This document shows, piece after piece, positions 3,702 through 8,498 of a stretch of 64,000 bases of DNA. The notes under the pieces are model-generated. The model ran no database searches and was not told the DNA's origin. It saw only the letters and a program-made list of their open reading frames with translations. Numbering within the stretch: the first letter of the stretch is position 1; each line of letters opens with the position of its first letter. The stretch is taken from the NCBI GenBank assembly GCA_965208105.1, contig OZ242318.1, positions 2,240,001-2,304,000 of the forward strand, read 5' to 3'. Position numbers and translations under genes: made by a program. Origin of the DNA: Candidatus Latescibacterota bacterium. GTDB taxonomy: Bacteria; Latescibacterota; UBA2968; UBA8231.

Positions 3702-4601
3702 TCAATCCTCGCCAACCTCCTCGTCCGTCTCCTGCCGCGGCCGGGATACCTTCACCACCCAGATGCTGATTTCGTAGAGCAACAGGACGGGGAGCGCCAT
3801 CAGGATCTGGGACAGCGGATCGGGCGGTGTGAAGATGGCTGCCACGACGAAGATTGCGGCGATGGCATAGCGCCGGATCCGGCGCATGTAATCGGGGGTG
3901 AGCAGCCCGAGGCGGGAGAGGAAGAGGGCCACCACCGGCATCTCGAAGACCAGGCCGAATCCCACCAGCAGCCTTAATACAAAGCCGATATAGGTGTCCG
4001 CCGCCCATTGCGAGGTCATGTCCGGCGGTTCCAGGGCAAGGAAGAAGCGCAGCCCCAAGGGCAGCACGATCCAGTAGGCAACCAGGGCGCCGGCGGTGAA
4101 ACACAGGACGCTGAGGCCGATGAGCGGCAGGGCGATGCGCTTCTCGCTGCTCAGCAGGCCGGGTGCGACGAACCGCCAGACCTGGTAGAAGACCACCGGC
4201 AGGGCCAGCACGAGGCCGCCTATGAGGGCGATCTGCAGACTGATGAAAAAGTAGGTCATTGGCTTGAGCGACTGCAGCCGGCGCGAGTCGGGCAGAGCCT
4301 GATCGGGCTCCGAGATCCCTGACTCGGCCCCGGGAGACGGCGAGCCCATCCACTCCTCCAGCAGCTTCCGGACCGCATCCACGGCACCCGGAGGGCGCTC
4401 GCTCTCCAGGCTCCGGACCGCTTCCTCGTAGGGGTAGGTCAAAAGTTTCAGGAGTTGGTCGGAGAAAACGAAGCAGACCACAGCTCCCACGATGACCGCC
4501 GCCAGGGCTTTGAGGATGCACCAGCGCAGCTCCTCGAGGTGGCCCAGGAAGGGCATTTCCTTGCGATCTTTCTGCCTGGACTCGTCCAGAAGGTTCTCCA
4601 A
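3702..4601 (-). CDS. tatC: Twin-arginine translocase subunit TatC
   Basis: EMPFLGHLEELR, YQVWRFVAPGL..SEKR, GLVFEMP, AAIFTPPDP.SQ; about 6 TM segments. Confidence 0.95.
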   Translation of the reverse strand: MENLLDESRQKDRKEMPFLGHLEELRWCILKALAAVIVGAVVCFVFSDQLLKLLTYPYEEAVRSLESERPPGAVDAVRKLLEEWMGSPSPGAESGISEPDQALPDSRRLQSLKPMTYFFISLQIALIGGLVLALPVVFYQVWRFVAPGLLSSEKRIALPLIGLSVLCFTAGALVAYWIVLPLGLRFFLALEPPDMTSQWAADTYIGFVLRLLVGFGLVFEMPVVALFLSRLGLLTPDYMRRIRRYAIAAIFVVAAIFTPPDPLSQILMALPVLLLYEISIWVVKVSRPRQETDEEVGED

Positions 4602-4846
4602 TCTCTCGAAATCGATTTCCCCGGCGGCGGCGACTCGGAACCCCGTGCTTGAATCCCTGCCAGCTTCGCCCCGGGCGCATCCTACCCTCCCGCCTCGCGC
4701 ACCCGGGGGGCGCGGAAGGAGCGAGTTCCCTAGACCTTATGTATTGACGGAGATATGAAAGACCTCCTCCGACTCGGTTGTCGGGGGTTATCTTTGGGAA
4801 AACGGAGTTCACCCAAAGACCTATCCCCAGCGAGAAGGAGGAGGCC

Positions 4847-5986
4847 ATGCGTAAATCTACGAAATTCGTCGCCTTGGACATACATAAAGATTCGATCACC
4901 GTCGCCCTGGCCGGTGAAGGCCGAAAAGGGCCAGACCTGTATGGAACGATACCGTCTACGGGCGCCGCGTTGTCCAAGCTGGCGGGCCAACTGGCCCGTG
5001 GTGGGACCTCGTTGCGGTTTTGCTACGAGGCCGGACCCTGCGGCTACGGCGTCTACCGTCAGCTCACAGCCCTGGGGCACGCCTGCACGGTGGTGGCGCC
5101 CTCGCTGATCCCGCGTCGGCCGGGCGACCGCATCAAGACCGACCGCCGCGATGCTGTGTCTCTGGTGCGGCTTTTCCAACACGGCGAGTTGACCCCCGTG
5201 TGGGTGCCCGACGAAGCGCAGGAGGCGATGCGCGATCTGGAGCGCTGCCGGGAAGACTTCAAGCACGCCGAGCGCCGCGTGCGCCAGCGGCTGAACAGCT
5301 TCTTGCAGCGCCACGGCCGGATCTACTCCGGGCGCAGTCGCTGGACCCAAGCCCACTTTCGCTGGCTGGAGACCCAGCGCTTCGATCATCCGGCCCAGCA
5401 GATCGTCTTTCAGGAATACGTGGACGCGGTACAGGAAGCCCAAGGTCGGATCCAGGGGTTGGACCAGGCCCTGCAGCAGGCGCTGGAGGGATGGTCTTTG
5501 GAAGGGGAGACGCGGGCTATGAGGGCGCTGCGCGGGGTAGACACGCTCACCGCGGTTACGACCCTGGCCGAGTTGGGGGACCTCACCCGCTTTGACTCGC
5601 CGCGCCAACTGATGGCCTTCGTCGGTCTGGTCCCCAGCGAGCATTCCAGCGGCTCCCGCCAAAAGCGAGGGGCGATCACCAAGGCGGGCAACGCCCACGT
5701 GCGGCGCGTGCTGGTGGAAGCCGCCTGGTGCTATCGCTTTCCCGCCCGCAAGACGGCCGCCTTGCAACGACGCGCCGAACAGACCGCACCCCCCATACAG
5801 GCCATCGCCTGGAAGGCACAGAAACGCCTGTGTGGGCGCTATCGACGGCTGAGTGGGCGAGGGATGCCGAAAAACAAAGTCTGCACCGCGATCGCGCGGG
5901 AGCTTTTGGGTTTCATCTGGGCCATCGCCTGGGAGCAGAAACGCCCCGGCCGCCTCGTGGCCAGGAGGCCTCGGATCGCCGCCTGA
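4847..5986 (+). CDS. IS110-family DEDD recombinase/transposase
   Basis: AAGGAGGAGG RBS; RuvC-like D-E-D-D (ALDIHK, CYEAG, KTDRRDA); C-terminal GLVPSEHSSG catalytic-Ser loop; frame uninterrupted. Confidence 0.97.
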   Translation: MRKSTKFVALDIHKDSITVALAGEGRKGPDLYGTIPSTGAALSKLAGQLARGGTSLRFCYEAGPCGYGVYRQLTALGHACTVVAPSLIPRRPGDRIKTDRRDAVSLVRLFQHGELTPVWVPDEAQEAMRDLERCREDFKHAERRVRQRLNSFLQRHGRIYSGRSRWTQAHFRWLETQRFDHPAQQIVFQEYVDAVQEAQGRIQGLDQALQQALEGWSLEGETRAMRALRGVDTLTAVTTLAELGDLTRFDSPRQLMAFVGLVPSEHSSGSRQKRGAITKAGNAHVRRVLVEAAWCYRFPARKTAALQRRAEQTAPPIQAIAWKAQKRLCGRYRRLSGRGMPKNKVCTAIARELLGFIWAIAWEQKRPGRLVARRPRIAA

Positions 5987-6018
5987 TAAGCTCATCGTCT
6001 CAGAAGCCGGCATAGGAC

Positions 6019-6226
6019 CTTTGCTCATGTAAATCGAAACGGGACAGAAGGGACCGGTCAGGAGAATCCTCGAAGACACTATGAGGCGCCTATCAGGCTG
6101 ACCCTCGACTCTAGATTGAGGCCGCTCCGCGACGCACCCAGGACAGGCGGTAACCAACCCGCGAATATCAGTCGGATCAACCGTCGCTACAGCGTCCCTT
6201 CTGTTCCCGAACAAACTCATGCAAAG
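6019..6226 (+). ncRNA. Predicted bridge RNA/seekRNA of the IS1111-type element
   Basis: Enclosing stem CGGGACAGAAGGGAC (6040-6054) / GTCCCTTCTGTTCCCG (6194-6209). Internal GACACT (6075-6080), CTCTAG (6109-6114) and ATATCAG (6165-6171) match the target and donor junction sequences. Confidence 0.75.
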
Positions 6227-6281
6227 ATAACACCCGAAATGACCACCCCGGAGGGGGTTGACAACCGTCAATACATATCAG

Positions 6282-6441
6282 TGTCCCGTCGCAGAGATAG
6301 GTTGACGCAATTGGGCCGCCGAGGCGCCCGGCTCACAAGGCGCCTGAGCGAGTCGTACCAGTGGTGTACGGCGAGTGAAGGCAACGCCGTGAGCCGGGAT
6401 GGATCGGTGGAATAATGGCGACATATCTCTGCGACGGGACA
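6282..6441. mobile_element. ~160-bp palindromic MITE/REP-like element bounded by CTAG
   Basis: Terminal IR TGTCCCGTCGCAGAGATA (6282-6299) / TATCTCTGCGACGGGACA (6424-6441). Inner IRs CCCGGCTCAC (6327-6336) / GTGAGCCGGG (6389-6398) and GTCGTAC / GTACGGC. CTAG at 6442-6445, and CTAG is restored on the left when the IS is removed. Confidence 0.85.
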
Positions 6442-8040
6442 CTAGTTGCGCGCGAAAACCCCCTTCACTCTGACGGCAACCAAGCCGGCCAGGCAGACGA
6501 CCGCGCCCAGCAGCATGGCGCGGGCGAAGAGGTCGCCGTGGCGCGTGTAGAAGGTGAGACCGCCCCCGACGTCAACGTCTCCCACCCGCACGGCCGGCTC
6601 GAAAATCCCGGTGGCCTGGTAGGTTCGCCCGAAGGGATCAATGAATAGGGAAATCCCACTGGTGGCGCAACGGGCGATGGAGGTGCGGTTCTCGACGGCG
6701 CGAAGGACGGCCAGTTGCGCGTGCTGGTATGGTCCGGCGGTGCGCCCGAACCAGGAGTCGTTGGTGATGTTGATCAACAGCTGCGCCCCCGCCTGCACGC
6801 GCTGCCGCGCCAGATCGGGAAAGACGGATTCGAAACATATGAGCACGGCGAAGGTCGCTTCGGAATGGCTGAACAAGGTGTGTTCCCTGCCCCTGGCGAA
6901 CTCGGCCGGACCGAGATCGCCGGTGAGGGCGGTCCAGTCGATCCCGCGCAGCAGGGGGATGCTGTCCCGGAAGGGGGTGCGTTCGCCAAAGGGGACCAGG
7001 TGCATTTTGGCATAGACCTGCAGATCGGGGTGCCCGGGACTGGCGAAAAAGGCTGAATTATAGGGCTCGCCGCCCGATGGACCATAGTCCGAGGCCCCGG
7101 TGAGCAGGGGTATCCGCAGGTCCTTCACCAGTCGCTCCACCCTGCCCCTGCAACCGGGGCGCCAGCGCAGGTAACAGGGCAGGGCGGTCTCGGGCCAGAC
7201 GAGAAGGGCGGGATTCCGGGCAGCCGCCTGTCGCGACAAGCTCTCGAGGGTGGCAAAGCTGCGGCCGAGGCCGCCGGGCCCCCATTTCTCCTCGCGGGAC
7301 AGGTTGGGCTGGACCAGGGCGACCCGCATTTTCGGGCCCGGCAGGGACGAGGGCGGTATCGAAGCGCGGCCGTGGACCCAGGGTCCCGCTATCCACAGAA
7401 CCAGACCACCCAGCAGCGCCGTCCGCCGCCGGATCCCCATGGGAGCGGCGAGAATGAGAAATACCAGCACATTGACCAGGGCGAGCCAGAAGGAGACCCC
7501 GTAGACCCCGGTAATCGAGGCGTACTGGATCAGGGCGGGAAAGACCGCCTGGGTGTTGCCCAGAAGCAGCCAGGGGAATCCCAGCTCGCCCAGCGAGAGC
7601 AGGTACTCCTGGGCCGACCACAGGACGGGAGCCAGGAGCAGGGCGCGCCGGCCCCAGCGCTGCATCGAGCCGCCCAGCAATCCGGCGAATACGGCGATGA
7701 ACAGGCCCAGGTAGGCGGCCATGAGCACGGTGCCGCCTACTACGGCCGGTCCTCCTCCCTGGGTGTGGGCGACCCAGTAGAGACTGCACAGATTGAAGGT
7801 GAAGCCGGTAACCCATCCCCGCCGAAACCCCTCTTTGAAACCACAGCCCTGCAGGGCCGCGAACAGGGGGATCAGCGCAGTCCAGGCCCAGCCGCCGTGA
7901 TAGAGAATGGCCAGAGGATTTTCGGGATGGCAGGGAAAGGACAGGGCAAGCAGCATCCCCGACAGTATGGGGAGTATGCATCCGCGGAAATGCCGGTTGG
8001 AGCCGGTGAGGGCCAGGCTGGCTGCGGAGATCTGGAGCAT
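6442..8040 (-). CDS. lnt: Apolipoprotein N-acyltransferase
   Basis: N-terminal TM domain, GFPW, VQPN, WPET, K.HLVPFGE, ICFES, TNDSWFG...GPYQH, RAVENR. Start codon uncertain. Confidence 0.95.
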   Translation of the reverse strand: MLQISAASLALTGSNRHFRGCILPILSGMLLALSFPCHPENPLAILYHGGWAWTALIPLFAALQGCGFKEGFRRGWVTGFTFNLCSLYWVAHTQGGGPAVVGGTVLMAAYLGLFIAVFAGLLGGSMQRWGRRALLLAPVLWSAQEYLLSLGELGFPWLLLGNTQAVFPALIQYASITGVYGVSFWLALVNVLVFLILAAPMGIRRRTALLGGLVLWIAGPWVHGRASIPPSSLPGPKMRVALVQPNLSREEKWGPGGLGRSFATLESLSRQAAARNPALLVWPETALPCYLRWRPGCRGRVERLVKDLRIPLLTGASDYGPSGGEPYNSAFFASPGHPDLQVYAKMHLVPFGERTPFRDSIPLLRGIDWTALTGDLGPAEFARGREHTLFSHSEATFAVLICFESVFPDLARQRVQAGAQLLINITNDSWFGRTAGPYQHAQLAVLRAVENRTSIARCATSGISLFIDPFGRTYQATGIFEPAVRVGDVDVGGGLTFYTRHGDLFARAMLLGAVVCLAGLVAVRVKGVFARN

Positions 8041-8153
8041 CGGCTGCCGGGGTGGTGAGTTATGAGGCCGTGGAGAAGTGCGGAGACGGGCGCGGGCAGG
8101 GATGGAGCATGGCCGGCAAATATAGACCGGTGCGCGGCGGCGGGCAAGGAAGG

Positions 8154-8169
8154 TGGCACGAATTCTGCT
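8154..8169 (+). promoter_or_regulatory. Candidate sigma-54 (-24/-12) promoter upstream of radC
   Basis: TGGCACGAATTCTGCT, GG-N10-GC, one mismatch to TGGCACG-N4-TTGC; intergenic. Confidence 0.4.
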
Positions 8170-8498
8170 TCGACGGAGGTTGCCCGGTCCGTCCCGGATT
8201 TGGTGAAGGACCCGATTGCAATGGTAGCTGCAGGGCAGTGAGCGGGCTGTCCCCTTGAACCCCTTCCGCTGCCCCGGTCTTCCCCCGGGCCGGCGCAAAT
8301 GGAGGAAGGAAAATTCGCCCGGAAATTTCCTCATGGTTTCTTCCGGGTGCTATGTTGGCAGGAGAGGAGAACAGGAATGGTTCGTTTCTTACACGCATCG
8401 GCCGGAGAGGCAGGAGAATCATGCACTCGGAAGTAAGCTGGGAAGAAAAAAATTTGAACAACGGGGTCGGATGCCTGCCGCCAAGGAAAGGTTCCCCC

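Follow-up and report, generated by a model that had tools for sequence, protein, structure and literature searches.

What brings an insertion sequence (IS) to the very end of another mobile element, and is that end the target for which it is programmed? The question is raised by a stretch of 64,000 nucleotides from a Candidatus Latescibacterota bacterium (contig OZ242318.1, positions 2,240,001 to 2,304,000), called the window below and used at its full length for all coordinates, in which an IS at 4734-6279 abuts a 162-bp MITE (a miniature transposable element with inverted repeats) that we have named MITE-A. From its anatomy, copy census, site specificity, conserved RNA fold and guide-target covariation, all of which were observed directly, we consider it very probable that 4734-6279 represents an IS1111-type insertion sequence (IS110 family) which is active, or was so recently, and which targets the MITE end through its RNA.

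Anatomy and class of the IS

The IS and its immediate junctions consist of the following parts.

4734..6279, plus strand: IS110-family element of the IS1111 type, 1546 bp excluding both AG core copies, with 12 near-full copies in the genome
4730..4733, plus strand: left target half CTAG, made of flank base C, the MITE TA duplication (4731-4732) and the first AG core (4732-4733); it precedes 12 of 12 IS copies
4738..4750, plus strand: left subterminal inverted repeat, 13 bp, 4 bases inside the left end, with 6265-6277 as its partner
4847..5986, plus strand: transposase open reading frame (ORF), 379 aa, the sole long ORF of the IS interval, intact in 10 of 12 copies
6265..6277, plus strand: right subterminal inverted repeat, 13 bp, 2 bases inside the right end
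6280..6281, plus strand: second AG core copy, seen in 12 of 12 copies; G6281 doubles as base 1 of the MITE

At 6280-6299 the window reads AG followed by TGTCCCGTCGCAGAGATA. When the IS and one AG core are taken out, which leaves CTAG joined to 6282-6299, the result is the reverse complement of 6424-6445 in 22 of 22 bases, exactly as the initial annotation had claimed. This complete match, which far exceeds what chance would give, together with the AG on both sides, places the IS at 4734-6279. Non-coding DNA extends over 113 nt upstream of the gene and 293 nt downstream. Subterminal repeats, a long downstream non-coding region and a short core at both junctions correspond to the IS1111 layout; a long non-coding region 3' of the transposase gene (PMC11187229, PMC11208160) and subterminal inverted repeats of 7-17 bp (PMC11208160) are given for this group in the parts of these papers available to us.

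The transposase contains a DEDD (RuvC-like) N-terminal domain (PF01548, residues 8-155, E 5.7e-13) and a PF02371 C-terminal domain (E 1.8e-22), the latter matching the solved ISCro4 and IS621 recombinases. It scored 263 bits against NCBIfam NF033542, "IS110 family RNA-guided transposase," for which the cut-off is 140. The translation includes GLVPSEHSSG, an instance of the GLxPxxxxSG motif (form GL-P----S(T)G) that section 6 of PMC11187229, a paper available in part, describes as typical of IS1111 transposases. The best plasmid-borne match to the protein was 60% identical. A sigma-70 pattern scan of 4700-6460 yielded no promoter-like site.

Genomic copies and their target sites

A BLASTN census of the whole genome (one contig, 4,846,116 bases) returned 12 near-full IS copies at 95.6-100% identity, plus a few fragments. 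One near-full copy has a 120-bp internal deletion. The transposase ORF is intact at 379 aa in seven copies and at 410 aa in three, frameshifted in one and shortened by an in-frame deletion in another. With seven copies at least 99.4% identical and 10 of 12 ORFs intact, the IS has probably been active recently. The 410-aa ORFs stem from a one-base insertion near window position 4772, which puts an upstream ATG in frame (G000:C1:2701797-2703344, 3964970-3966516 and 2089784-2091330).

Each of the 12 copies is flanked by CTAG at its left end and by AGTG at its right end, and the proposed insertion point and AG core (AG at 4732-4733 and 6280-6281) stood accordingly. MITE-A ends host ten copies, three at one end type and seven at the other, and the insertion is orientation-specific, with the IS right end always facing the MITE body. 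The other two, both among the 410-aa copies, adjoin a 745-bp repeat (10 copies) encoding a DDE_3 (IS630-type) domain and a different 121-bp inverted-repeat MITE (2 copies), respectively. Rather than lying in unrelated flanks, the 12 copies are thus all found at CTAG/TG ends of TA-flanked inverted-repeat elements. A degenerate 3'-end IS remnant adjoins a MITE end of a sister family, and CTAG stands before a 39-bp left-end fragment as well.

The host element and its second end are located as follows.

6281..6442, no strand assigned: MITE-A, 162 bp, non-coding, inverted ends of ~19 bp, of the IS630/Tc1-mariner kind by its TA duplication
6438..6445, minus strand: free copy of the 8-bp target at the far MITE end, CTAGTGTC on the minus strand and GACACTAG on the plus strand, a perfect match

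The second MITE end is therefore an empty target, as had been suggested: its perfect 8-bp site at 6438-6445 is free. MITE-A is a genomic family, with 188 BLAST matches that collapse into 135 loci, 90 of them full-length (at least 155 bp), and the IS is absent from 80 of these 90.

We also observed that the IS copy at G000:C1:1994950-1996375 carries a deletion between IS positions 1095 and 1187. In a same-genus genome (L090/L004), the high-scoring segment pair of a 94% identical copy breaks at the same two positions, which suggests a non-autonomous derivative that persisted or spread.

A conserved RNA fold with two guide strands

We have compared the IS with transposase relatives of 57-85% identity drawn from 80 loci; the records carry the labels Gemmatimonadota, Latescibacterota, Nitrospiraceae, Gammaproteobacteria and others. 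Element ends could be defined by simple patterns in 37 relatives, and the core was always AG. The non-coding region downstream of the gene holds the following features.

6059..6186, plus strand: bridge/seekRNA-like core, 128 nt, with two stem-and-internal-loop domains, compared across 55 distinct relatives
6073..6081, plus strand: T guide, the 5' strand of the target-binding loop; GACACTA (6075-6081) is complementary to top-strand TAGTGTC
6109..6115, plus strand: B guide, the 3' strand of the target-binding loop; CTCTAG (6109-6114) equals left target plus core, and the next A equals base 1 of the IS left end
6165..6171, plus strand: ATATCAG, the candidate donor-binding strand in the second internal loop, equal to IS right end plus core and present in 48 of 55 relatives

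The RNA core lies ~200-225 nt before the IS right end and measures 128-141 nt across the 55 distinct versions. In the RNAalifold consensus, the first domain consists of two stems enclosing an internal loop, and the second domain also has an internal loop. Its 27 pairs are formed in 95.8% of cells, with compensatory changes in 11, and none of 500 shuffles reached the covariation score. When the partner columns were slid as a control, pairing fell to 33-48%. The structure emerges only from the alignment, as a single-sequence fold of the whole non-coding region was no better than shuffles (z -1.33). Rfam contained no model matching the RNA core, and an Rfam search of 4000-7000 gave no match.

Within the RNA, it is the two strands of the first loop that vary. 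The T guide is the reverse complement of T plus AG plus right flank, and the two guides combined read C-T-A-G-T-G-T-C, that is, the flank base, the MITE TA duplication and the first five bases of the terminus. Across 47 non-redundant relatives, the T guide matched its own right flank at a mean of 4.23 of 6 variable positions, compared with 1.74 of 6 for the flanks of other elements. The B guide matched its own left flank at a mean of 2.69 of 4 positions in 35 relatives, against 1.36 of 4 for those of others. For T and B guides alike, 0 of 10,000 permutations attained the observed match sum. These figures are rough, because the relatives are not independent and a few are shifted by one base in the chosen columns; the covariation signal read from the alignment is nonetheless plain. 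The claim that the IS is programmed against the CTAG-bounded ends of a MITE or IS family is therefore supported by sequence comparison: the guides fit the target, and across 47 relatives they vary in step with the targets there, although they would specify ~8-9 bp only. The T guide is unchanged in the copies at the two non-MITE-A sites, so reprogramming within the genome was not seen.

A different segment, ACGGGACA (6039-6046), an 8-base complement of the MITE end, was considered as a guide and is probably not one. It lies outside the conserved core, the single-sequence fold pairs it with 6190-6210 as part of a long stem, and an 8-mer match to the target is not rare (p ~0.16).

What the guides specify: a word or a MITE

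CTAG occurs 3,298 times in the genome, compared with 33,912 expected from base composition, and is thus ~ten-fold under-represented; a sizeable part of what remains corresponds to the ends of IS630-type elements. Free perfect CTAGTGTC sites number 87, of which 72 are MITE-A ends, and when occupied sites are added, MITE-A holds 82 of 97. The IS lands in MITE ends because its target word occurs there, and to call it "aimed at the MITE" says only that it is aimed at the 8-9 bp that the MITE supplies.

Several observations weigh against RNA-directed targeting of the MITE end. Two of the 12 insertions, those outside MITE-A, are at imperfect matches, TAGTGGT and TAGTGTT, which are one-mismatch or wobble forms of the target word. 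The 10 of 10 perfect-site insertions found in MITE-A are within the expectation from its share of sites (~0.19), and there is hence no sign of recognition beyond 8-9 bp. Two copies (G000 2701797 and 2923420) have CCATAG instead of CTCTAG in the B guide, yet they are located at CTAG, and flank matches are poor in L004 (1/6), L029 (1/6), L031 (2/6) and L058 (2/6), some of these being due to a one-base register shift in the choice of columns. The 5' strand of the presumed donor loop was not convincingly matched to the IS left end. With 379 aa, the transposase exceeds the length of 330-350 aa that the available part of PMC11187229 gives for those of IS1111. An autonomous IS630-type element with the exact MITE-A ends was not found in the genome. 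Finally, contigs of the RNA libraries X15 and X16 span the transposase gene and the non-coding region, yet contigs cannot show transcription, starts or ends.

The alternative that fares best holds that there is no evolved relation between IS and MITE, the short word being merely commonest in the MITE in a CTAG-poor genome. The scarcity of CTAG, the 72 of 87 free sites that are MITE-A ends, the expected outcome of the perfect-site insertions and the 8-9 bp reach of the guides all speak for it. The relatives speak against it. An IS 81% identical in another genus of the same taxonomic family (G016) has the same T guide and is located at a MITE-A-like end; in a relative from another taxonomic family (G024), the guide ACGACACTA matches the flank TAGTGTCGT at 9 of 9 positions. 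The termini in both cases are MITE-like TAGTGTC, and the guides are adjusted to them. A copy in the same genus, whose guide differs, is located at TAGTGTGCC. Among 46 distinct right-flank termini across the clade, the window's included, seven have a downstream inverted copy with at most one mismatch, followed by TA; in ~1.1 kb of sequence, chance would provide such a match to a 14-mer (one mismatch at most) with an expectation of order 1e-4. Five of the seven belong to TA-flanked elements that measure 65-163 bp and have a different terminus, in records labelled Gammaproteobacteria and Desulfobulbaceae, and one is a 1178-bp element. L006, L007, L016, L025 and L027 have the right-flank terminus GGAGNCTGTCGGAC, which their T guides match. 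Such recurrence is hard to obtain by accident and suggests, but does not prove, recurrent targeting of TA-flanked termini in the clade. On balance, we regard the absence of any evolved relation as rather unlikely.

Going beyond targeting by the window's own IS, we tentatively put forward, as a possibility short of even chances, that a sub-clade of IS1111-type elements across several phyla has specialised on the junction between TA duplication and terminus of IS630/Tc1-mariner-type elements, with guides retuned to each MITE and a relationship running both ways. Near-invariant in the guides are CTA at the 3' end of one strand and TAG-A in the other. Under such a specialisation, these invariant parts would read TA plus the first base of the terminus, and the variable parts would be retuned to the terminus of each host MITE. 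The target would thus exist only once the other element inserts, and the TTAG/CTAG of the guide loop would itself be an IS630-type target.

Identity and history of MITE-A

The initial annotation had described a 160-bp palindrome. That it is a repeated element with inverted ends held true; its length is 162 bp (6281-6442), and it is not palindromic throughout. The flanks of MITE-A in the window are TA, the left now at 4731-4732 and the right at 6443-6444. Among the 90 full-length copies, CTAG borders 35 at both ends, the flanks of 13 are discordant (xTAG/CTAy), and only 2 show identical flanks other than CTAG. The xTAG/CTAy flanks fit a 2-bp TA duplication in a YTAR site and not a 4-bp duplication, and the element proper is therefore 6281-6442. 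Duplication of TA is the signature of the IS630/Tc1-mariner superfamily.

There are 13 DDE_3 matches in the genome. Elements of 745 bp and ~1250 bp with this domain begin with TA-GTG and have other inverted ends than MITE-A, whose autonomous partner may reside in other genomes. A sister MITE family (~176 bp, 14-15 loci, e.g. G000:C1 852-948, 142615-142711 and 3325866-3325962) has an interior ~86% identical to that of MITE-A and different inverted ends, also starting TA-GTG, which suggests that ends or interiors have been exchanged between MITE families. No intact copies of the sister family with an intact IS were found in the genome.

These data bear on whether the 162-bp repeat could instead be a repetitive extragenic palindrome (REP) or bacterial interspersed mosaic element (BIME) type of unit, mobilised by a tyrosine transposase. 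REPs are frequent among the known IS110-family targets, according to the literature available in part, and the genome provides no autonomous IS630-type element bearing the exact MITE-A ends. Such a unit would, however, have to account for inverted ends of ~19 bp, flanks that fit TA duplication in a YTAR site, DDE_3 elements beginning with the same TA-GTG and a sister family that shares the interior and has other ends of the same type. We therefore judge this origin very unlikely.

Of 18 other genomes from the same taxonomic family, 9 contain the MITE-A family and 6 have any IS match; four genomes (G002, G008, G011 and G014) have the MITE family and no IS match was found in them. The MITE-A family is older than the IS.

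Three further observations concern single MITE copies. At G000:C1:69610-69775, a MITE-A copy is situated directly 3' of a tRNA gene ending in CCA. In a contig of public run X1, the far MITE end (window 6280-6441) rejoins the MITE start, going back 162, which would fit two tandem MITE copies somewhere in the sample. At the nested locus L089:1456-3322 (G000:C1:3999566-4001432), MITE-A splits an older, ~85%-identical IS RNA remnant exactly at the TTAG of the B-guide loop, and a young IS copy lies in the CTAG end of this same MITE-A. MITE-A thus also inserts into the IS.

The proposed mechanism

The following account of how the IS reaches the MITE end is drawn by comparison; we infer that the RNA is transcribed, that a circle forms and that strands are exchanged, as well as any benefit that the target choice may bring. 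By analogy with characterised family members, the IS would excise as a circle with its ends joined through the AG core, and the RNA would hold donor and target together. GACACTA, on the 5' strand of the first loop, would pair with the top strand of TAGTGTC, and CTCTAG, on the 3' strand, with the bottom strand of left target and core, after which the recombinase would exchange strands at AG. The site so specified, C-TA-GTGTC, would be the point where the terminus of an IS630-type MITE meets the TA target duplication. Being such a junction, it should arise mainly where the MITE has inserted into CTAG, and the IS would thus live in the ends of another mobile element. These ends may offer the IS a plentiful and harmless landing pad.

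The choice of target could in principle be made by the protein or by the subterminal repeats instead of the RNA, the matches in the non-coding region being incidental. The matches in the window are short, a shuffle test on target-shared k-mers gave p ~0.04-0.16, and the guide RNA is predicted. Incidental matches would not, however, explain why two alignment columns track the targets in 47 and 35 relatives at 0 of 10,000 permutations, nor why these columns flank an internal loop closed by stems with compensatory changes; in addition, RNA guidance has been experimentally shown in IS1111-type elements (PMC11187229, available in part). Protein-based choice is hence hardly plausible. That the IS and the 162-bp element form one composite unit, or that the small element is IS-derived, would agree with their adjacency in 10 of 12 IS copies and is practically untenable, given that 80 of 90 full-length MITE copies are IS-free, that both MITE ends, and two further element types, host the IS, that the MITE family is present in four genomes (G002, G008, G011, G014) in which no IS match was found, and that, by eye, no similarity between MITE and IS ends was noticed beyond the 8-bp target word.

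Genomic setting and public runs

IS and MITE separate a tatC-like ORF (3702-4601) from a minus-strand ORF (6442-8334), which by reading of its translation is a putative apolipoprotein N-acyltransferase (lnt). The stop codon TAG of the latter (6442-6444) overlaps the CTAG at the free MITE end, and the MITE seems to have inserted at this stop codon, the TA duplication preserving the stop. In a same-genus genome, the orthologous tatC-lnt spacer is 131 bp long, with neither IS nor MITE; as it is too diverged to be aligned base by base, it shows the absence of both elements and not an exact empty site.

Public runs that carry the labels of sponge and coral-reef metagenomes contain near-identical sequence. 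In run X5, a DNA contig of 1769 bp places the IS between CTAG and a MITE end, with a left flank that differs from that of the window. Neither a circle joint (right end to left end) nor an IS-less joint was listed among the assembled public-run contigs, which proves nothing.

Comparison with known systems

That IS1111 and IS110 elements choose their targets by RNA guidance is known from publications of 2024 (PMC11187229, PMC11208160), and the comparisons with these two papers made here refer to their available parts. ISEc11, ISPa11, ISKpn4 and ISPst6 (PMC11187229) and the IS1111 group in general (PMC11208160) resemble the window IS in the DEDD transposase, PF02371, GLxPxxxxSG, subterminal repeats and downstream non-coding region. 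In the IS1111 seekRNAs (PMC11187229), the match to the top strand lies 5' of the match to the bottom strand, the two overlapping at the crossover, as they do here, and sites are element-specific. The window IS differs from the characterised elements in its lineage (uncultured Latescibacterota-, Gemmatimonadota- and Proteobacteria-labelled records, known here from sequence alone), in its 379-aa transposase as against 330-350 aa, and in its target, an IS630-type MITE terminus. With ~47 natural guide-target pairs on a shared RNA scaffold, it should be useful for working out by what rules IS1111-type bridge RNAs pair; these have received less study than IS621.

IS621 itself, of the IS110 group (structures 8WT6 and others), is alike in having an RNA with two loops, by which both strands of target and donor are read around a 2-nt core, and the C-terminal domain of its recombinase matches that of the window transposase (E 2e-5). 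Its RNA is encoded upstream of the gene, with the order of top and bottom guides reversed (PMC11187229), whereas that of the window IS is downstream; the core of the window IS is AG as written on the transposase strand.

The habit of residing in another element also has precedents. In Coxiella burnetii, 20 of 21 IS1111 copies are associated with QMITE2, according to the available part of PMC5896051, and these IS1111-type copies are thus likewise almost all in a MITE. Their site is a GTAG palindrome (REP) inside QMITE2, compared with terminus plus TA duplication here, and QMITE2 is flanked by 7-11-nt direct repeats of variable sequence, as against the TA duplication of MITE-A (PMC5896051, same part).

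With respect to sequence, the transposases of IS4321 and IS5075 are 26-27% identical to that of the window over 61% of the length. These two IS1111-type elements, said to have been described by Partridge and Hall in 2003, reportedly enter the inverted end of another transposon with a set position and orientation, and this habit is the same as that of the window IS. Their host is reportedly a large Tn3-family transposon, compared with a 162-bp MITE here and a site that spans its TA duplication.

An IS110/IS1111 element aimed at IS630-type MITE termini was not found described in the literature searched, the coverage of which was partial. The mechanism and the "element within element" habit are already known; new are the IS630-type host element, the TA scar within the target and the lineage, and the data further suggest that several relatives target similar termini. 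The window thus presents a natural RNA-guided recombinase whose programme can be read from the genome, with guide, target, free targets and occupied targets all visible. It adds IS630-type MITEs, from an uncultured phylum of which little is known, to the "element within element" targets and indicates that a target can include the host element's own insertion scar, with the known mechanism unchanged.

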